Below, piece by piece: positions 1-6,761 of a stretch of DNA of 6,761 nucleotides (its first letter is position 1; each line of letters begins with the position of its first letter). Source of the DNA: a virus (taxonomy: Duplodnaviria; Heunggongvirae; Uroviricota; Caudoviricetes); the IMG/VR virus record IMGVR_UViG_2778261223_000006, positions 1 to 6,761 of that record; one strand, 5' to 3'. Below the pieces are notes generated by a model that did not search any database, had not been told where the DNA came from, and worked only from the letters and a program-made list of their open reading frames with translations. The position numbers were made by a program, and so were the translations under genes.

Positions 1-251
1 TGCTGCTTTAATGCTGCGGTAAACACACACTTCCAGCTTTCTGCATCCAGCCAGCGACCATGCCATTCAACCTGACGAGAGACGTCACCAAGGCAAGCCC
101 AAAGCTTTCGGTTTTGGTCTAAGCTGCGGTTGCGTTCCTGAATGGTTACTACGATTGGTTTGATTGGGTCTGGAAGGATTTGCTGGATAGCTTGAATGGC
201 GTTCTGCTGATGGATGGGGCTTCTTAGTTCAAACGTTAGTTTCCTCACCAT
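1..251 (-). CDS. ninB: NinB (Orf-family recombination mediator), N-terminal ~83 codons; gene continues past the left edge of the window
   Basis: Minus-strand translation from ATG at 251 gives MVRKLTFELRSPIHQQNAIQAIQQILPDPIKPIVVTIQERNRSLDQNRKLWACLGDVSRQVEWHGRWLDAESWKCVFTAALKQQ..., which matches my recollection of lambda NinB almost residue for residue. SD AGGAG lies 5 nt upstream of the ATG. Not in the ORF track because it is truncated by the window edge. Confidence 0.85.
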   Translation of the reverse strand, partial: MVRKLTFELRSPIHQQNAIQAIQQILPDPIKPIVVTIQERNRSLDQNRKLWACLGDVSRQVEWHGRWLDAESWKCVFTAALKQ

Positions 252-393
252 TTACGCTCCTGTAATCGTCAAGTGCAGCTGCAATAGTCCCTATCGGGTC
301 ATGGTCTTGCCCGATAATCTCATTTACGTTTTCATCTTCTTCCACACCGAAAAAGAATCGCAGGGCTAACATGATTTCTTCGTATGCGCTCAT
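229..393 (-). CDS. Hypothetical small acidic protein (54 aa)
   Basis: Translated by hand: MSAYEEIMLALRFFFGVEEDENVNEIIGQDHDPIGTIAAALDDYRSVNGEETNV. Strong SD AAGGAG 5 nt upstream of the ATG, which sits 2 nt after the stop of the upstream 104-aa ORF. Its 3' end overlaps the ninB start by about 23 nt in another frame. No recognisable family. Confidence 0.5.
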   Translation of the reverse strand: MSAYEEIMLALRFFFGVEEDENVNEIIGQDHDPIGTIAAALDDYRSVNGEETNV

Positions 394-395
394 AC

Positions 396-710
396 TCACT
401 CCTTCACTTTGACTCCAGCAGCGCGGATGTTTTCCTCATAAGCATCCATTGCATCACCGAAGCCATTGGAATAATCAACAGAAAACCCTTTGGCTAATGC
501 TTCTCTGCTGTCGATAAACTTTGGCGCGGTTATTTCAATAGCTGCTCGCGATGCATGCCATAAAGCCCACCACTCATTTAAGGAGTGACGAATATCCATG
601 CTTGAAAATGCAAAGTACCTATCACCATTTCTTGCCTCGGTTATCATCTCGAATGGTAATCTCAATTTTTTGGCAACGTATTCCTCAAACTGCTTTCTTG
701 ATTCGTCCAT
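396..710 (-). CDS. Hypothetical phage protein (104 aa), nin-region accessory gene
   Basis: ORF-track ORF with ATG start and SD GAGGGT about 9 nt upstream. Compact operon spacing with flanking genes. No family recognised from memory. Confidence 0.65.
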   Translation of the reverse strand: MDESRKQFEEYVAKKLRLPFEMITEARNGDRYFAFSSMDIRHSLNEWWALWHASRAAIEITAPKFIDSREALAKGFSVDYSNGFGDAMDAYEENIRAAGVKVKE

Positions 711-727
711 CGATACTTACCCTCAGT

Positions 728-934
728 TCAACTCACAAAACGCCACGCCATTTTTGCTACAGCGACAGGCATAACACCGATAATCACCCAGACAAATGCA
801 GCGCCAAACAACGTATACCATGGGTCTTTACCGTCATTCACAAGACGAATGTAGCTATGCAGAACAATAAAAAACGTCAGAAGAATCCATCCAACGCCAA
901 CGCATTTGAGTGCGACGAGCATAAACTCAGCCAC
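728..934 (-). CDS. Small hydrophobic membrane protein (68 aa, about 2 predicted TM helices)
   Basis: ORF-track ORF, GTG start preceded by strong SD GGGGGAGAG about 6 nt upstream; an in-frame ATG 4 codons downstream is an alternative start. Two long hydrophobic stretches (LVALKCVGVGWILLTFFIVL and LFGAAFVWVIIGVMPVAVA). Confidence 0.55.
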   Translation of the reverse strand: MAEFMLVALKCVGVGWILLTFFIVLHSYIRLVNDGKDPWYTLFGAAFVWVIIGVMPVAVAKMAWRFVS

Positions 935-949
935 GATTTACTCTCCCCC

Positions 950-981
950 AAATAAAAAGGCCTGCGATTACCAGCAGGCCT
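950..981 (-). terminator. Rho-independent terminator downstream of the helicase gene (tR2-like position)
   Basis: Perfect 8-bp GC-rich inverted repeat aggcctgc (958-965) / gcaggcct (974-981) with 8-nt loop. On the minus-strand transcript it is followed by UUUUUAUUU (complement of 949-957). Confidence 0.6.
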
Positions 982-1009
982 GTTACAAGCTCAGTGATGT
1001 AGATGGTCA

Positions 1010-2446
1010 TCAGAATCCTCCTTTCTTCTTGGATTGCGGTTCCTCGCGTTCACGGCGGCGCATTTCAGCGGACTGTTGGTCTGTGTCATAAATAGCGCCA
1101 TTTGCCTGAATGCAATACACCGTGCCGGTATTGCCATGACGATTGAGACGAAGGATTAGTTCGGTTTCACCAGGTGGAACACTGTCATCAAAAGCACCTT
1201 CACGATGGATCCCCACCCAATAATCGCAATCCTGTTCAATCTGCCCTGTATCTCGTGAGTCACTTGGTAATGGGCGTTTATTGGTTCTGCTTTCCAGTGC
1301 GCGGTTAAGCTGCGTCAGAAGCACAACAACGCAATCAAGCTCTTTGGCAAGGTTCTTCAGTCCTTTGGTGATCATGCCGTAAGCAAGGTCGTTGCGATCG
1401 GCCTTCTCAGCAGTCATTAGTGTCAGGTAATCGACCAGAATCATGCCAACACATCCTTTTTCTCGCTTGATTCGACGACTTTCGCTGACGATTTGAGCCA
1501 GAGATAATCCCGGCGTGTCGTCGATGTAAAGCAGGTCGATTTCACTCAAGCGATTGGCTGTTTCGATCGCCCTGTTGAAGTCACCATCGTAATCACCCTG
1601 ATAGCCGTCATCAGCGTCATTTGTCGCCGGAAGGTAAAAAATATTCGGGTTAACACCTGACTTCTGTCCTACCAGTTTTTCCAGTATCTGGTCACCGGGC
1701 ATTTCAAGGCTGAACATCAGAGCGGGCTTTTTCTCATGCACTGCGCAGTTGATTGCCATCTGGCTGTATAGCGTCGTTTTCCCCATCTTAGGGCGAGCGC
1801 CAATGACAAACAGAGAGCCTTTCACCAGACCTTTCGGTGACAGCATCCTGTCCAGCGATGGGATCCCTGTGCTCATTCCTCGTTGTTCGCCTGACGGGTC
1901 AAATCGCTTCTCAAGGTCGCTAACCCAGTCTTCCATGACCTCACCAAATGAGCGAAGGCCGCGACGCGATCCGGTTTTTGCATGGTCTGTCAGTTGCGTA
2001 AAAATCGCCTGAATAGCTTCGTACTTCTGCGTCGCAGTCATTCCGTTGCGGGAATAGAGCAATTCCGTCGCTTCAGTCATGCGGTTGATGGCGTAGCGTT
2101 CCATTGCGGTTTCACGAACCTGCATTGCATAGGCAACGATGTTTGCTGCGCTTGGCGTGTTCTTTGCGATCTCAGCGATATAAGCAAAACCGCCAACAGA
2201 CGCCGTTAACGATTTACGCTCCAGTTCATCGAAAAGCGTCAGGCCATCTACTGGCTTTTGCTCCCGGTGCATTCTGGTTATTTCTTCGAAAAGGATTTTG
2301 TGTGGTCGGCTGTAAAATGAATCAGGCTTCAGCATCGCCAGAACTTTCTGGACGCGCTCACTGCTGTCATCATCCAGAAGCAATCCACCAATCACCGCCT
2401 GCTCTGCCTCGATGCTATGGGGCGGCGCATAAAAATTATCGGTCAT
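1010..2446 (-). CDS. dnaB: Replicative DNA helicase, DnaB family
   Basis: Near-colinear with E. coli DnaB as I recall it: N-terminal PHSIEAEQAVIGGLLLD, FAYIAEIAKNTPSAANIVAYA, Walker A GARPKMGKTT, and LTQLNR...RPLPSDSRDTGQIEQDCD. The track ORF starts at a GTG at 2461; I prefer the ATG at 2446 (MTDNFYAPPHS...), which has SD GAGG about 10 nt upstream. Confidence 0.93.
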   Translation of the reverse strand: MTDNFYAPPHSIEAEQAVIGGLLLDDDSSERVQKVLAMLKPDSFYSRPHKILFEEITRMHREQKPVDGLTLFDELERKSLTASVGGFAYIAEIAKNTPSAANIVAYAMQVRETAMERYAINRMTEATELLYSRNGMTATQKYEAIQAIFTQLTDHAKTGSRRGLRSFGEVMEDWVSDLEKRFDPSGEQRGMSTGIPSLDRMLSPKGLVKGSLFVIGARPKMGKTTLYSQMAINCAVHEKKPALMFSLEMPGDQILEKLVGQKSGVNPNIFYLPATNDADDGYQGDYDGDFNRAIETANRLSEIDLLYIDDTPGLSLAQIVSESRRIKREKGCVGMILVDYLTLMTAEKADRNDLAYGMITKGLKNLAKELDCVVVLLTQLNRALESRTNKRPLPSDSRDTGQIEQDCDYWVGIHREGAFDDSVPPGETELILRLNRHGNTGTVYCIQANGAIYDTDQQSAEMRRREREEPQSKKKGGF

Positions 2447-3326
2447 CGTGTTCACCCTCACGAACTTTCAGGTAGGTATTATCGTTAAGCAGGAAATCAA
2501 ATCCCTTTTTGTGCCAGACGGTTCCGCGTTGATGGTTTGGGCGCTCTTCGAACATCCATCGGCAATTTTCGCCAACGTAGCTCAAATAATTTCTCCAGTC
2601 CTGCATCGTGAACCCATGCCCGTCAAGTTGGCGTGTTATTACTCCGGCTTTGCGCCAGAACGTTCGGATCTGGTTTTTACGCTTGTCATTCAGTGCGCGG
2701 ATTCTTGGCGCTTCAGGAAGGATTTCGTGGTAAGCATCGACAACATCCTGACAGCTGACGGAAGGTTTTTTCTTGTCAGACTTTTTGTCTGCTGTGGCAC
2801 TCTCTAATACGTCAGTATTAGAGATATTATTTATATTATTGTTTATGGACAACCGTTGGACAACCGTTGGACAATCTCCGCTGAGAGCCGCGCCATTACT
2901 GGTGTTTGCGTTGGACAACCGTTGGACAACCGTTGGACAATTTTTTGCCTGAAAATCGTCATATTTAACGATTGTAAACAGGCTAAATTTCTTCCCCATC
3001 GAGCAAATATTAAGCATCCCTTTCGACTCAAAAGTCCGTAATAAGCTCCGAACTTTGTTGTCGGGGATGAATGTTTCTCTGACCAGCGACGGGCGTCCAG
3101 TTATCATCTGACCGCGATCAACAGTTATCGGCCCGATATCCGTATTGACGACAGTAGATTCGTGATTAGCCTTGAGGATTAAGTGAAGCCAAAGATGTAC
3201 TGCCTGAGAGTCCTTATAGAGCCTGCTGTCCATAAACTGGCGGTGTATAGAGACATACCCCATACTGGATGCCTCCTGATGTTGTACAGGGTTATGCCTG
3301 TAATCAGCTAACTTAACGACGCCCAT
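2436..3326 (-). CDS. O: Phage replication initiation protein (lambda O-like origin-binding protein) with the origin embedded in its coding sequence
   Basis: Sits between cII and the helicase as in lambdoid replication modules. Contains internal iterons plus an AT-rich tract (2810-2940), encoding a repeated CPTVVQRLS linker peptide. SD AGGAG 6-7 nt upstream of the ATG at 3326. Sequence family not confirmed from memory. Confidence 0.75.
   Translation of the reverse strand: MGVVKLADYRHNPVQHQEASSMGYVSIHRQFMDSRLYKDSQAVHLWLHLILKANHESTVVNTDIGPITVDRGQMITGRPSLVRETFIPDNKVRSLLRTFESKGMLNICSMGKKFSLFTIVKYDDFQAKNCPTVVQRLSNANTSNGAALSGDCPTVVQRLSINNNINNISNTDVLESATADKKSDKKKPSVSCQDVVDAYHEILPEAPRIRALNDKRKNQIRTFWRKAGVITRQLDGHGFTMQDWRNYLSYVGENCRWMFEERPNHQRGTVWHKKGFDFLLNDNTYLKVREGEHDDR
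2810..2845. other. AT-rich DNA-unwinding region of the replication origin, adjacent to the iterons
   Basis: Sequence tacgtcagtattagagatattatttatattattgtttat is strongly AT-rich within an otherwise balanced coding region. It lies immediately downstream (in gene orientation) of the iterons, as in lambda ori. Confidence 0.6.
2846..2874. repeat. Origin iteron cluster 1: tandem 11-bp direct repeats ccgttggacaa (two full units and one partial)
   Basis: Direct read: tggacaa (2846-2852), ccgttggacaa (2853-2863), ccgttggacaa (2864-2874). Lies inside the O-like gene. Confidence 0.8.
2909..2940. repeat. Origin iteron cluster 2: three tandem copies of (c)cgttggacaa
   Basis: Direct read: cgttggacaa (2909-2918), ccgttggacaa (2919-2929), ccgttggacaa (2930-2940). 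Separated from cluster 1 by a 34-bp spacer. Confidence 0.8.
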
Positions 3327-3474
3327 GCTTCACTCCTGCTTTGGCTAGTCTGTAAACACCAACAAGGCGCTCTGCGAACGCCCTGTTATTTGCTGCGGCT
3401 ACCACTAATCCCTCAGGTGAATCAGGGTGTCGAATCTCTTCTTTTTCCTGGTATTTCTTACGACGTTTTGTCAT
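3313..3474 (-). CDS. Hypothetical small basic protein (53 aa) between cII and the O-like gene
   Basis: Translated by hand: MTKRRKKYQEKEEIRHPDSPEGLVVAAANNRAFAERLVGVYRLAKAGVKHGRR. Strong SD AGGAG 5 nt upstream of the ATG at 3474. Stop overlaps the start of the O-like gene by 14 nt. Absent from the ORF track (below its length cutoff). Confidence 0.5.
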   Translation of the reverse strand: MTKRRKKYQEKEEIRHPDSPEGLVVAAANNRAFAERLVGVYRLAKAGVKHGRR

Positions 3475-3508
3475 AATTACTCCTGTGGATTGATCCAGTC
3501 TTTCTACA

Positions 3509-3787
3509 TCAGGCCTCGAAGAATTCGCCGTTCTTCGGGGCTTTTTCTTTTGTCAGCATTCTGGCTACTTTCTTAGCCAGTTCCGCCAACTCCTCGTCTT
3601 CAACACCCCATTCAAGAACAGCAAGAAGCATTCCCATTTTGGGGATGAAGCTGTCTTTCCATCGCGAAATTTGCGATTCATTAATCCCTAACGCGTCGGC
3701 AACCTTTCGCTGACCACGTACAGCAATTCGATTCAGGATGTTGCTTGTAATTGCATTCGCTTTCTTGCGAGTACTTGTAAGTTGCAT
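3509..3787 (-). CDS. cII: Transcriptional activator CII
   Basis: The core SQISRWK...IPK...MLLAVLEWGVEDEE aligns with lambda CII (SQISRWKRDWIPKFSMLLAVLEWGVVDDD). The RBS/start context TTAAGGAAATACTTACATATG is lambda-like. Position directly downstream of cro and nutR. Confidence 0.9.
   Translation of the reverse strand: MQLTSTRKKANAITSNILNRIAVRGQRKVADALGINESQISRWKDSFIPKMGMLLAVLEWGVEDEELAELAKKVARMLTKEKAPKNGEFFEA
3741..3754 (+). promoter_or_regulatory. Candidate CII-binding box (TTGC-N6-TTGC) of a PRE-like promoter reading towards cro/cI, inside the 5' end of cII
   Basis: TTGC ttgtaa TTGC read on the plus strand at 3741-3754, antisense to cII codons about 11-15. Lambda PRE has the same TTGC-N6-TTGC architecture within the cII N-terminal coding region. 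No clear -10 identified. Confidence 0.35.
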
Positions 3788-3844
3788 ATGTAAGTATTTC
3801 CTTAACTAATAAGAAGTTATGCGCATCAACTTATGCGCGTTGTA

Positions 3845-3889
3845 TTCCCGCATTTCGGCGGGAATGAGGACCATGACTGTTAAAGAGCG
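3845..3889 (-). promoter_or_regulatory. nutR site: boxA (complement of 3878-3889, CGCTCTTTAACA) and boxB hairpin (complement of 3845-3863)
   Basis: Minus-strand boxA matches the boxA consensus. The boxB hairpin sequence ucccgccgaaaugcgggaa is identical to the nutL boxB at 5544-5562. Lies between cro and cII as in lambda. Confidence 0.7.
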
Positions 3890-3895
3890 GTGTTA

Positions 3896-4090
3896 CTATT
3901 TGTTTTTCTTGTTGCTTGGGAAAGGACGAACTTCCTCTCCAATCACACTGCCATCAGGCTTTACCGTAACCATAATGTTACGGCCTGCCAGAATGGCCTT
4001 GCTGATAGCGCACTGGATTACACCAAAGTCACTGGCTGCTTTAGCCTGTCCATGGATTTTGGCGTAATCGGCAAGTGTCATTCGAATCAT
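3896..4090 (-). CDS. cro: Cro repressor
   Basis: [64 protein letters not shown] aligns along its length with lambda Cro ([63 protein letters not shown]). The track begins at a GTG at 4096; I prefer the ATG at 4090, which has SD GGAG 7-8 nt upstream. Confidence 0.9.
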
Positions 4091-4119
4091 ATGCACTCTC
4101 CGTTATTAACCATGAACAA

Positions 4120-4148
4120 AGAATACTACAGGTATTCAAAGCAATCAA
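4120..4148 (-). promoter_or_regulatory. PR-like promoter for cro: -35 TTGATT (complement of 4143-4148), 17-bp spacer, -10 TATTCT (complement of 4120-4125)
   Basis: Read on the minus strand. The -10 hexamer is identical to the PL -10. Both hexamers overlap the operator palindromes. Confidence 0.6.
4121..4137. promoter_or_regulatory. Operator OR1-like site, GAATACtacagGTATTC
   Basis: 17-bp site with perfectly symmetric 6-bp arms GAATAC/GTATTC. Overlaps the PR -10. Confidence 0.6.
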
Positions 4149-4162
4149 TACTCAGGGTATTT
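4146..4162. promoter_or_regulatory. Operator OR2-like site, cAATACtcaggGTATTt
   Basis: Symmetric arms AATAC/GTATT. Overlaps the PR -35. Closely related to the OL site at 5432-5448. Confidence 0.55.
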
Positions 4163-4196
4163 TTAGTTTAAGTACCTTAGCTATTAGAATTAAGCT
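4162..4196 (+). promoter_or_regulatory. PRM-like promoter for a leaderless cI transcript: -10 TAGAAT at 4185-4190, poor -35 TTTAGT at 4162-4167
   Basis: TAGAAT ends 6 nt before the cI ATG (4197) and there is no SD upstream of cI, as for lambda PRM/cI. A possible degenerate third operator lies at about 4170-4187. Confidence 0.5.
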
Positions 4197-4913
4197 ATGG
4201 AAAATAAAAAATCACTGACGACAGAACAGCTCGAAGACGCTAAGCGGCTTAAGGCTTTGTATGAGTCAAAAAAGAAAGAATTGGGAATAACCCAATACTC
4301 AATCGCTGATGAACTGGGTATCACCCAAGGAGCGGTAGGGCATTATCTTAATGGCAGAAACGCGCTAAACGTTGAGGTCGCATCTGGTTTTGCACGTTTG
4401 TTGCAAGTCTCAATTGCTGATTTTAGCCAGTCAATTGCTGCCAAGGTTGCAGAACAGGCAGAAAGCCTTAAGAGCGATGCCAACGTAAGGTATGCAGGGG
4501 AATACAGAGCAGGAAAGAGGTATCCGGTGTTAAGCAGTATCCAGGCTGGCTCGTGGTGTGAAGCATGCGAACCATACACCATTAAAGACATAGATGTTTG
4601 GCTTGAGTCTGACGCGCATATTCAAGGTAATGCGTTCTGGCTTAAAGTGGAAGGTGATTCAATGACGGCACCGGTTGGGTTAAGCATTCCAGAGGGAACA
4701 TTCGTTCTTTTCGATACCGGAAGGGAGGCGATCAACGGCAGCTTGGTCATAGCAAAACTTTCTGACTCTAACGAAGCAACATTCAAGAAGCTGATAATCG
4801 ACGGCGGAAATAAATACCTCAAGGGACTTAACCCTGCATGGCCTCTCGTGCCAATCAATGGAAACTGCAAGATTATAGGCGTTGCAATTGAGACAAAACT
4901 AAGGCTGGTTTGA
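4197..4913 (+). CDS. cI: CI repressor (HTH DNA-binding domain plus S24 LexA-like autopeptidase domain)
   Basis: N-terminus LTTEQLEDAKRLKALYESKKKELG matches lambda CI ([24 protein letters not shown]), with a divergent recognition helix. Ala-Gly cleavage site (IQAGSW), catalytic Ser (VEGDSMTAP) and Lys (ATFKKLI) motifs are present. Confidence 0.95.
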   Translation: MENKKSLTTEQLEDAKRLKALYESKKKELGITQYSIADELGITQGAVGHYLNGRNALNVEVASGFARLLQVSIADFSQSIAAKVAEQAESLKSDANVRYAGEYRAGKRYPVLSSIQAGSWCEACEPYTIKDIDVWLESDAHIQGNAFWLKVEGDSMTAPVGLSIPEGTFVLFDTGREAINGSLVIAKLSDSNEATFKKLIIDGGNKYLKGLNPAWPLVPINGNCKIIGVAIETKLRLV

Positions 4914-4932
4914 TCACGCAAGGGGGACGCTT

Positions 4933-5301
4933 ATGGTTGGAACCGCTATAGCAAGCTTTTTTGGGATGTTGGCAATCTCAACAATTTACGGCTTAGCGCA
5001 TGCTTTTATTGCGAAATCTCTATCAGAAAAAATAAGCCAGGCTTGGGCGCATAGATCAGCTCGTTTCATGATTCTAGTGGTCATAGCAATACAAGGGATA
5101 TCTGCATTTATCCTCTATGGATCAAGCTTATACCTGTTGTATCAAGGCGCGACATTTACGCCTTACACCAGTGATTACGGAACTCTATACGATGGTAGTG
5201 AAGACATCTCTATGGCTTGGATCGTCTTTGGTTTATCTGTGGCCGTGTCTGTTGTAGCAGACATCATTAAGGTAATTCTCGTCTTAACCTTCGCTGACTA
5301 A
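4933..5301 (+). CDS. Integral membrane protein (122 aa, about 3 TM helices) co-transcribed with cI; candidate lysogen-expressed exclusion/defence protein in the rex position
   Basis: ATG lies 19 nt after the cI stop, with SD AAGGGGGA between. Three long hydrophobic segments (residues about 5-27, 45-70, 95-120). Occupies the slot between cI and OL/PL that holds rexA/rexB in lambda. No family recognised. Confidence 0.75.
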   Translation: MVGTAIASFFGMLAISTIYGLAHAFIAKSLSEKISQAWAHRSARFMILVVIAIQGISAFILYGSSLYLLYQGATFTPYTSDYGTLYDGSEDISMAWIVFGLSVAVSVVADIIKVILVLTFAD

Positions 5302-5431
5302 CCCATAATCCCGGCAGCAATAGCTATCGGGATCCACTTCACATATCCCGCATAAAAAGCACTGAACAAGCAGATACCGAAAAAATAAATATCCTTTGTA
5401 TTCATCTGTTTATCATTATTTCATCAAAAAT

Positions 5432-5473
5432 AAATACCCTGGGTATTTACACAATAAAATACCTACAGTATTC
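5432..5473. promoter_or_regulatory. OL operators: AAATACCCtGGGTATTT (5432-5448, perfect 8-bp arms) and AAATACCtacagTATTC (5457-5473)
   Basis: Palindromes read directly. Same ATAC...GTAT half-site family as the OR sites. They overlap the PL hexamers. Confidence 0.65.
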
Positions 5474-5474
5474 T
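5446..5474 (+). promoter_or_regulatory. PL-like promoter: -35 TTTACA (5446-5451), 17-bp spacer, -10 TATTCT (5469-5474)
   Basis: Hexamers with canonical spacing, overlapped by the OL palindromes. About 190 nt upstream of the N-like gene. Confidence 0.6.
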
Positions 5475-5520
5475 TTAGCCATCAGCAGGACGCTGGTAGC
5501 CAAACGGAACAGATTGGCAG

Positions 5521-5562
5521 GCTCTTTAACATTGATGGGATTGTCCCGCCGAAATGCGGGAA
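5521..5562 (+). promoter_or_regulatory. nutL site: boxA GCTCTTTAACA (5521-5531) and boxB hairpin tcccgccgaaatgcgggaa (5544-5562)
   Basis: boxA matches the boxA consensus. boxB is identical to the inferred nutR boxB. boxA-boxB spacing is 12 nt here and 14 nt at nutR. Confidence 0.7.
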
Positions 5563-5668
5563 CCAAAGAGTAGTTGGCTTTGGGGTGATGTGAAGTGCAG
5601 CTGCACGACGGCAACCGGAAGATAAGCACCCGGCGCGTCACCGCCAAAGTCAATCATCGGAGGTCAAC

Positions 5669-5941
5669 ATGACAGTAGTCATTACATATCTGGCTGACGA
5701 TAACGCCAGAAATCGCCGCAGAGCACGCAGACAGGCTCAACGTGAACAGGCAATGCAAGAACAGCGACTGGCGCGAAAAATTGCGCTAAAGCTCTCTGGT
5801 TGCGTCAGAGCAGATAAAGCAGCATCACTCGGAAGCCTTCGCTGCAAGAAGGCAGATGAATGCAGTGGAAGTATTTGCCTGCCAAACGTAGCTATTTACG
5901 CGGCAGGCTACCGGAAATCAAAACAACTGACGGCGAGATGA
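5669..5941 (+). CDS. N: N-like transcription antitermination protein (90 aa) with N-terminal arginine-rich motif
   Basis: First gene downstream of PL/nutL. Arginine-rich motif DNARNRRRARRQAQREQ near the N-terminus, as in lambdoid N proteins that bind boxB. SD GGAGG 4 nt upstream of the ATG. Confidence 0.65.
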   Translation: MTVVITYLADDNARNRRRARRQAQREQAMQEQRLARKIALKLSGCVRADKAASLGSLRCKKADECSGSICLPNVAIYAAGYRKSKQLTAR

Positions 5942-5957
5942 TAAATTAATTTGCTAA

Positions 5958-6539
5958 TTACTTGTTTTTGCCGTGCTTATCCTGAGCGATAAGTTCATCC
6001 ATAAGACTGTCTTTCTTCCCAGCAAACCTAATGTAGCACTCATTTCTATAGCGTTCTGGGATAACAAAACGGTCGATTTCAGGATATCCAGTAGCAGAAG
6101 GTATCCGAATAAGAAGCCCTTTTTCGAGCAATGAGATTGCTTCAGGGCTTCCCTTTTCCGTTTGTAGCTGGTTATTAGCGACTACAGCGAGTGCCAAATA
6201 CGCTCTTTCTCCAAGAGTTAACGAATCAAACAAATCTTGCACGTATTTCTCTTCTTTAGATTTGCGCTTCTGAGCAGCGAATACCTCAATTCTTTCAGTC
6301 ACAGCGTGATAAGCGGAATTAACAACGCCGTTAAGCACATAGCTAACGCAAAACAACAGGATGTAATACATCCAGTAATGAGGAAGGATTTCTGGATTAT
6401 GCAGGTTTATCCATTCTTTTACGCTTACCGGCATAACAATAATCAATATGATCAGGATGATTAGCATATGAATCAACTGTTTAAGTGTCATTCCTTGCAG
6501 GAAAAAATGCATTAGTTCCTGCCACCATGAGTTGTTCAT
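5958..6539 (-). CDS. sieB: Superinfection exclusion protein B-like membrane protein (193 aa)
   Basis: Convergent with N, as sieB is in lambda/P22. N-terminal hydrophobic TM segments (LIHMLIILIILIIVMPV, YWMYYILLFCVSYVL). The sequence matches my recollection of lambdoid SieB but this is unverified. Confidence 0.65.
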   Translation of the reverse strand: MNNSWWQELMHFFLQGMTLKQLIHMLIILIILIIVMPVSVKEWINLHNPEILPHYWMYYILLFCVSYVLNGVVNSAYHAVTERIEVFAAQKRKSKEEKYVQDLFDSLTLGERAYLALAVVANNQLQTEKGSPEAISLLEKGLLIRIPSATGYPEIDRFVIPERYRNECYIRFAGKKDSLMDELIAQDKHGKNK

Positions 6540-6761
6540 CGGCGTTTCTCTTTTGCTCTCTGTAGGGGTGAATAGAGTTTATCCGATTTCTCGCTTGAGC
6601 TGGCCCCCTGAAATACCAGACAGTAGATGTATCTTAAAATAAGAGATAGGCTTGGATATATGTCTAACACTAGTTCTAATTTTGGTAAGCGTAAACTGAC
6701 CGCCGTATGTAGCCATCAGACGAGAATTGGTAACTTAGACGCCCATCTGATATAGACGGAC

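Follow-up and report, generated by a model that had tools for sequence, protein, structure and literature searches.

The N proteins of phages lambda and H-19B bind the boxB hairpin with an arginine-rich motif (ARM), NusA with the central region and RNA polymerase with the C-terminus (PMC3526286), and the modified complex reads through Rho-dependent as well as intrinsic terminators (PMC3526286; PMC2724277). NusA binds the spacer of the lambda nut site, in which an AUU is critical, and boxA, which is cgcucuua in lambda, is found in rrn as part of a boxA-spacer segment with the sequence ugcucuuuaacaauuua (PMC2724277). Antitermination in rrn takes place without N and without a boxB hairpin 3' of boxA. 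In the phages, pentaloop and hexaloop variants of boxB mediate specific binding to the cognate N peptides: the P22 pentaloop GACAA has a GNRA-like fold with an extruded C that is read by a His and an Arg of the P22 ARM, and the phi21 hexaloop has a GNRA-like UAAC core with a flanking, non-canonical cWW C-C pair (PMC12550061).

The window analyzed here, a stretch of 6,761 nucleotides from a Caudoviricetes record in IMG/VR (IMGVR_UViG_2778261223_000006, positions 1 to 6,761), is 97-99% identical in bases 3400-6100 to HK620, HK140, HK630, mEpX2 and several other coliphages. The GenBank record of HK620 (AF335538) contains the features "nutL; putative N-utilization leftward" and "nutR; putative N-utilization rightward", both with the label "putative", in addition to tR1, pL/OL1-3, pR/OR1-3 and an "antitermination protein N". 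When aligned, these nut features correspond to positions 5520-5561 and 3844-3889 of the window with 100% identity, base for base. The gene order of HK620, P-O-cII-nutR-cro-OR-cI-hkaS-OL/pL-nutL-N, is also that of the window; to the right of N, HK620 carries hkaQ/hkaP, whereas the window carries sieB, as in HK140. The records of mEpX2 and HK140 annotate the boxA parts alone. HK620-type nutL, nutR and N are also present in HK140, HK630, mEpX2, CUS-3, ECP1, N7, IME10 and some Stx phages. The nutL sequence occurs in 26 phage records, and of 5,426 complete E. coli genomes, 502 (about 9%) contain it. The two sites are a textbook N/nut system, known since the annotation of HK620 in 2001, and they are common. 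What our analysis adds to the prior annotation is comparative support for a distinct N-boxB specificity.

Gene map and anatomy of the two nut sites

The window covers the immunity and replication region of a lambdoid phage, in the orientation opposite to that of the usual lambda map, with the following genes and promoters:

1010-2461, minus strand: DnaB-type helicase
2436-3326, minus strand: O-like initiator with iterons
3509-3787, minus strand: cII (Pfam Phage_CII, 1.8e-42)
3896-4096, minus strand: cro (Pfam Cro, 3.6e-26)
4118-4162, minus strand: OR operators and pR region, driving the cro-nutR-cII transcript (HK620 OR1-3, pR)
4197-4913, plus strand: cI repressor (HTH_3 and Peptidase_S24)
4933-5301, plus strand: small membrane ORF
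5432-5476, plus strand: OL operators and pL, driving the nutL-N transcript; 45-nt inverted match to OR (HK620 OL1-3, pL)
5446-5474, plus strand: pL promoter-like site, TTTACA-17-TATTCT
5669-5941, plus strand: N gene, 90 aa, with the ribosome-binding site (RBS) GGAGG at 5657-5661
5958-6539, convergent with N: sieB

The OR (4118-4162) and OL (5432-5476) segments form a 45-nt inverted pair. Six 11-bp-phased iterons (TGGACAACCGT) at 2835-2952, arranged as two clusters of three inside the O-like gene, correspond to the rep_origin annotated within the O gene of HK620. Antisense to the 3' end of cII, the plus strand carries a strong terminator-like hairpin at 3511-3553 (14 pairs and a T-run), in the position and orientation of an oop-like antisense RNA terminator.

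The original prediction had called two identical boxB hairpins on opposite strands. The 19-mer TCCCGCCGAAATGCGGGAA at 5544-5562 (plus strand) does recur as the exact reverse complement at 3845-3863 (19/19), without a third match in the window even when up to 3 mismatches were allowed; dinucleotide-preserving shuffles gave a mean of 0.01 matches, and 0/200 contained two or more. The boxA core GCTCTTTAACA is likewise present in exactly two copies in the window, 5521-5531 (plus strand) and 3888-3878 (minus strand), with 0.01 copies expected by chance and 0/200 shuffles containing two. With the variable first base included, the boxA 12-mers are GGCTCTTTAACA (5520-5531, nutL) and CGCTCTTTAACA (3889-3878, nutR), and the gap to the 19-mer is 12 nt in nutL and 14 nt in nutR; the predicted gaps of 12-14 nt thus stood, while the start of the nutL 12-mer had to be moved from 5521 to 5520.

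On the plus strand, the hairpin follows pL and precedes the 90-aa ORF; on the minus strand, it follows the cro stop codon and precedes cII. nutL and nutR have precisely this placement. The parts of the two sites are:

5520-5531, plus strand: nutL boxA, GGCUCUUUAACA, inside the annotated nutL of HK620
5532-5543, plus strand: nutL spacer, UUGAUGGGAUUG, containing AUU
5544-5561, plus strand: nutL boxB hairpin, stem 5544-5549 / 5556-5561, loop CGAAAU at 5550-5555
5582-5592, plus strand: tentative boxC-like motif, GGGGUGAUGUG, in a leader segment homologous to lambda CAAAG..GGCTTTGGGGTGTGTGA after boxB
5702-5752, plus strand: ARM codons N12-A28 (NARNRRRARRQAQREQA), predicted boxB-binding helix
3878-3889, minus strand: nutR boxA, CGCUCUUUAACA, 7 nt past the cro stop codon, inside the annotated nutR of HK620
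3866-3877, minus strand: nutR spacer, GUCAUGGUCCUC, reaching the base of the 8-bp stem
3844-3865, minus strand: nutR boxB hairpin, stem 3865-3858 / 3851-3844, loop CGAAAU at 3857-3852
3821-3838, minus strand: hairpin GCGCAU-AAGUUG-AUGCGC between nutR and cII, in the position of the lambda tR1 region

RNA folding of both sites gave the expected hairpins with a 6-nt loop, CGAAAU, and a predicted C-G closing pair, on a stem of 6 bp in nutL (-10.5 kcal/mol, z = -2.6) and 8 bp in nutR (-12.5 kcal/mol, z = -4.5). Counted from a 9-nt boxA, the spacer to the base of the helix is about 15 nt in both sites. The nutL boxA has an 11-nt core that equals the rrn-type consensus, and the nutL spacer is kept along with boxA and boxB in 96 nutL copies among the matches listed; by analogy with lambda, we infer a role for NusA and the AUU at this spacer. 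A search with all 4,227 Rfam families (E <=1) gave zero matches in the window, which is uninformative because Rfam holds no family for nut sites.

Between nutR and cII, tR1 of the HK620 record is equivalent to positions 3838-3844 of the window. The adjacent hairpin at 3821-3838 was missed by a simple scan for intrinsic terminators and is listed as a putative terminator only. The same scan recovered no clear terminator 3' of N inside the window, and the targets of antitermination are therefore mostly outside it.

Mechanical ORFs of 65, 68 and 43 aa cross pL, nutL and the leader (5396-5657, both strands), and in several public phage records nutL is covered by an annotated CDS, named "hypothetical protein" or "repetitive proline-rich cell wall protein 2". 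With the map settled as pL-nutL-N on the plus strand and pR-cro-nutR-cII on the minus strand, the ORFs across 5396-5657 are spurious.

Comparison of N and boxB with lambda, P22 and phi21

The call of the 90-aa ORF as N was borne out by a match to Pfam PF25694 (N_peptide, "Transcriptional antitermination N peptide"; 58.4 bits at a cutoff of 27.9, E=1.1e-15, residues 11-90), by a match to PHROG 271 ("anti-termination protein N-like", E=4e-34) and by 98% identity to the N protein of HK620 (88/90). A sequence search of the PDB with N returned only RNF168, an unrelated protein, with two weak matches (E = 0.35 and 8.9). Aligned with the ARMs of lambda, P22, phi21 and a further class described below (class G), the HK620-type ARM has the shared skeleton A-x-[T/N/S]-R-[R/Y]-[R/H/K]-x-R-R, followed by class-specific residues. 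R16, R20 and R21, numbered as in the N of the window, are invariant in this alignment.

Lambda has the same architecture and placement, boxA-spacer-boxB in both early operons, and the flanks of its sites are homologous to those of the window from the cro stop codon to boxA, at the RBS and ATG of cII and in the boxC-like leader segment. The cro-cII interval of lambda aligns with the window at both ends, including the nutR boxA, but the boxB cassette between them differs; a hairpin in the tR1 region of lambda takes the place of the hairpin at 3821-3838. The lambda boxA is CGCUCUUA, whereas the boxA here is the rrn consensus GCUCUUUAACA, and the lambda spacer is 8-9 nt as compared to about 15 nt. 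The lambda boxB has a 5-bp stem and a U-A-closed pentaloop, GAAGA/GAAAA, whereas the hairpins here have 6-8 bp and a hexaloop, C-GAAA-U, on a C-G pair, in agreement with the earlier statement that the loop differs from that of lambda. The loop core is of the GNRA type in lambda, and the core GAAA here likewise. The ARM of lambda has the skeleton A-x-T/N-RRR-x-RR in common with the HK620-type ARM, in which the position of lambda W18 is occupied by Ala.

A 5-nt loop was predicted for lambda (GAAGA) and P22 (GACAA), and a 6-nt loop for the window (CGAAAU), phi21 (CUAACC) and class G (CUAGCA). In the phi21 complex (PDB 1NYB), the hexaloop holds a 4-nt core in a pyrimidine-pyrimidine mismatch, C-UAAC-C, to be compared with C-GAAA-U here; phi21 stems are longer, as here, and the central region LARKIALKLSGCVRADKAASLGSL is common to the N of the window and to phi21-type N. 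The hexaloop here resembles the phi21 type in its 6-nt length and its C...U flank, but the core (UAAC in phi21, GAAA here) and the ARM class (TAKSRYKARRAEL in phi21, NARNRRRARRQAQ here) differ, and the partners were never exchanged in the loci examined. P22, in which N is the gene 24 protein, shares the consensus boxA CGCUCUUUAAC and has a related nutL spacer (UUCGAUGAUG versus UUGAUGGGAUUG). Its boxB is GCGCUGACAAAGCGC and its ARM NAKTRRHERRRK, and its C-terminal module has been found fused to the HK620 ARM. The 11-nt GCUCUUUAACA equals the boxA and the start of the spacer in E. coli rrn (ugcucuuuaaca), with the difference that boxA is here coupled to a phage boxB and to N. By analogy with the published loop structures, C-GAAA-U is most simply read as a true GNRA tetraloop with a C/U mismatch, in a phi21-like layout around a lambda-like core. 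A GNRA fold of the bound loop is plausible, GAAA being a canonical GNRA sequence (PMC12550061).

Association of ARM and boxB classes across prophages

An exact-pattern scan of IMG/VR recovered at least 120 loci. In all 86 of the 86 two-copy loci among the matches listed, the copies are divergent, with boxA 5' of boxB in the transcript. Among the same matches, boxA-spacer-boxB is kept as a unit and the sequence directly 5' of boxA switches between variants, and therefore the mosaic joints abut the nut site. The N gene downstream of nutL always encodes the ARM DDNARNRRRARRQAQREQ in the matches listed, followed by at least three different C-terminal modules: phi21-like (99 or 101 aa), HK620/H-19B-like (90 aa) and P22-like (86-87 aa). 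Additional loci were fetched by means of the phi21-like and P22-like C-terminal modules alone, and the ARM class was tabulated against the boxA-proximal hairpin for 181 non-identical loci:

HK620 ARM with the boxB of the window: 120/120
P22 ARM with boxB GCGCUGACAAAGCGC: 27/27
phi21 ARM with boxB CUCAACCUAACCGUUGAG: 2/2
lambda ARM with boxB GCCCUGAAGAAGGGC: 1/1
class E, ARM REIRKLERAR (REIRKLERARQHK) with boxB GGGGAUGAUUCGUCCCC: 8 loci, P22-like N C-terminus
class F, ARM NRNQRRMAAYNA or NRNQARRLAAFNA with boxB CCUGUGAAUACACAGG or CCUCAGAAUCUGAGG: 5 loci, P22-like N C-terminus
class G, ARM NSKNRYRARRAAK with boxB UUCCUCUCUAGCAGGAGGAA: 1 locus (L295)

Every P22 boxB has GCGCTGACAAAGCGC or a one-base variant of it. 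No off-diagonal pair of ARM and boxB was found among the 181 non-identical loci, while the ARM class and the C-terminal module mix freely; the HK620 ARM was counted 63 times with a phi21-like, 51 times with an HK620/H-19B-like and 8 times with a P22-like C-terminus. Covariation in the stem was not usable as evidence within the HK620 class, in which the element is essentially invariant across loci.

Classes E and F were found in L298, L303 and other loci of the set with P22-like C-termini; in class F, the two stems differ by compensatory changes and boxA is GCUCUUUAAAA. The class G locus (L295, around 1215-1670) has the boxA and spacer of the nutL in the window (CGCTCTTTAACATTGATGGGATTG), a boxB TTCCTCTCTAGCAGGAGGAA with the loop CUAGCA, of which CUA is phi21-like, and an ARM NSKNRYRARRAAKREQ with an R-to-Y change as in phi21 SRYKARR. 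Its sequence suggests that the specificity has switched within a single scaffold. The locus L015 has a diverged, more lambda-like ARM (AKNRRRERRAALRDQ) and another C-terminus behind an exact HK620-type boxB, with N about 300 nt downstream; since N-RRR-x-RR-x-A-x-R-[E/D]-Q is kept, the tolerated positions of the ARM become visible with boxB unchanged.

Conversely, the HK620-type boxB was located within about 700 nt upstream of 159 of the 162 non-identical N genes with an HK620 ARM and enough upstream sequence. Of the three exceptions, L148 has the end of an IS element inserted between nutL and N (around 560-760), and L238 has a rearrangement in which coding DNA of another kind begins a few bases 5' of the RBS of N (around 980-1400). 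In these two cases, the prophage is probably decaying and N has lost its connection to pL/nutL. The third exception is a second N gene in mEp213. The mEp213 genome (JQ182733; L175, 1217-3273) has a lambda-type nutR, nutL and N, and a second, HK620-type N about 1.2 kb further along the pL operon, listed in its record as "antitermination protein N (x2)"; no HK620-type boxB was found in the 6.3 kb examined. This orphan N may be a relic of recombination, or it may serve HK620-type phages in trans.

Physical linkage could account for part of the co-inheritance of nutL and the ARM codons, as the distance between them is only 100-450 nt. nutR provides the better test, with the exchangeable immunity module intervening between this site and N. 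Among the matches listed, the sequences from one boxB copy to the other group into nine clusters; only 3-11% of their DNA aligns to the interval of the window, and at least six unrelated repressor/cro pairs are represented. One cluster has lambda-type cI and Cro at 97% identity flanked by HK620-type nut sites; the immunity module of lambda itself is flanked by lambda-type nut sites. As nutR keeps the same boxB across nine unrelated modules, the caveat of linkage for nutL is countered. With context defined as the immunity class, the C-terminal module of N and the first ORF after nutR, the ARM, the nutL boxB and the nutR boxB occur together in 28 distinct mosaic contexts among the matches listed. 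In these sequences, the immunity and antitermination specificities assort independently, with the ARM and both boxBs staying together, and co-inheritance of this kind across modules is what a functional ARM-boxB pair predicts.

Predicted function, alternative readings and leader structures

The two hairpins are very probably the nutL and nutR sites of an HK620-type lambdoid prophage, served by its own N for predicted antitermination. The support for this comes from the anatomy of the sites, their identity with the HK620 nut features, the family membership of N and the strict co-inheritance of ARM and boxB. The suggestion of N-dependent antitermination fits with a boxA 5' of the hairpin in both divergent early transcripts and with the presence of N. 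By extrapolation from lambda, H-19B, P22 and phi21, the models here for the binding of RNA, the dependence on Nus factors and the read-through of terminators, the rightward transcript from pL and the leftward transcript from pR would each present a consensus boxA of the rrn type, about 15 nt of spacer and the boxB UCCCGC-CGAAAU-GCGGGA. The 90-aa N would be the first product of the pL operon, and its N-terminal arginine-rich helix (NARNRRRARRQAQREQA) would bind boxB on the nascent RNA. With NusB/NusE recruited by boxA, the center of N would bind NusA, brought to the spacer, and its C-terminus would contact RNA polymerase near the RNA exit channel. The elongation complex would thereby become resistant to the tR1 region before cII and to the tL terminators beyond N.

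In one alternative reading, the nut sites are genuine but their specificity is not distinct: HK620-type and lambda N may cross-recognize each other's boxB, with neutral drift and linkage behind the difference between classes. A single ARM skeleton across lambda, P22, phi21 and HK620 with R16, R20 and R21 invariant, the GAAA in a loop comparable to lambda GAAGA/GAAAA, the even more lambda-like ARM next to an exact HK620 boxB in L015, and the HK620-type N of mEp213 in a phage with lambda-type nut sites can all be read in this way. We nevertheless consider cross-recognition rather unlikely: 0/181 non-identical loci swap the HK620 ARM or boxB with those of lambda, P22 or phi21 at their own nutL, despite frequent recombination on both sides, Ala occupies the position aligned with lambda W18, a 6-nt loop with a C/U flank replaces the U-A-closed pentaloop, and loop variants confer specific binding to the cognate N (PMC12550061). 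It is much less likely that the inverted copies serve chiefly as "boundary sequences" in the DNA, for the homologous swapping of modules between lambdoid phages, rather than as RNA signals. Mosaic joints right at the 5' edge of boxA, the constancy of boxA-spacer-boxB, the many different modules that adjoin the nut sites and the label "bsq5; boundary sequence" for the nutL region in the CUS-3 record speak for such a role, which is compatible with a secondary consequence of conservation and not with the primary function. It leaves the hairpin, its fixed orientation to transcription and the rrn-type boxA unexplained, and boxB changes with the ARM, not with the flanking modules.

Chance (about 0.01 expected matches), a terminator, an RNase III site and a Nun-like factor were rejected. 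That the hairpins are terminators or sites for RNase III or other RNA processing, rather than for binding of N, is highly improbable. They are stable, GC-rich hairpins in 5' leaders, and a long helix that is a possible RNase III substrate is located just downstream in the N leader, but neither copy is followed by a U-tract (AACCAAAG, AAUACAAC), the terminator scan was negative, a stem of 6-8 bp is not long enough for RNase III, and the boxA partner and the co-variation with the ARM would go unexplained. Hardly any weight can be given to the idea that the protein is a Nun-type exclusion factor, which arrests transcription at boxB instead of promoting antitermination. An N-terminal ARM and the position of N in the pL operon agree with HK022 Nun (PMC4124055), but a cognate boxB in both of its own early operons would be self-destructive for a Nun-like factor. 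The match to Pfam N_peptide spans residues 11-90, and the center and C-terminal modules exchange with those of N proteins that have a phi21- or P22-type ARM and the nut sites that go with it.

We therefore return to the HK620-type nut sites and to the distinct N-boxB specificity that had been proposed, which gains comparative support: the ARM and boxB co-segregate, whereas shuffling affects both the immunity module and the remainder of N. The HK620 boxB loop is best read, from these comparisons, as a specificity class separate from those of lambda, P22 and phi21. Whether the HK620 ARM and boxB form a fourth recognition mode that is orthogonal to those three, among at least seven co-evolved classes in enterobacterial prophages, is in our judgment about evenly balanced. 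The literature searched contained no experimental work on the HK620-type ARM/boxB pair, searches with the boxB sequence itself gave unrelated primer matches only, and PMC11480772 offered nothing usable on the folds of such loops. If orthogonal, such pairs would provide additional RNA-tethering tags and a natural series for studies of specificity switching in ARM-RNA recognition; the natural mosaics map the ARM to the hairpin and could guide both uses.

The leaders that contain the nut sites have predicted structures of their own. The segment 3' of the nutL boxB, CAAAGAGTAGTTGGCTTTGGGGTGATGTGA, is similar to lambda CAAAGCAGAAGGCTTTGGGGTGTGTGA, the boxC region, a name taken from PMC2724277; this homology was read by eye, as the nut sites fell out of register when the pL-to-N leaders of lambda and the window were aligned globally with MAFFT. 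The N leader (198 nt) folds with a dG of -67.9 and z = -2.2, and its boxA GCUCUUU is paired with AAAGAGU (5566-5572). At 5563-5653 (plus strand), UUGGCUUUGGGGUGAUGUG, which includes the boxC-like motif, forms a long helix with CGCGUCACC..GCCAAAGUCAA just 5' of the RBS of N, which we take to be similar to the RNase III hairpin in the lambda N leader that controls translation of N. The nutR-to-cII leader (3795-3886, minus strand) folds with z = -2.9, none of 200 shuffles being equally stable, and its boxA CUCUUUAAC pairs with GUUAAGGA at the ribosome-binding site of cII. The resemblance of boxA to an anti-Shine-Dalgarno sequence may make this pairing trivial; alternatively, the pairing may link the loading of Nus factors and N to the translation of cII. 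Among the matches listed from IMG/VR, the distance from boxB to the start codon of N is bimodal, about 107 nt or about 300-450 nt. The longer distance is due to 200-340 bp of inserted DNA in the N leader, present in HK140 (L003, 3570-3903) and in about 40% of the listed loci; in HK140, the insertion carries an annotated ORF of 41 aa.
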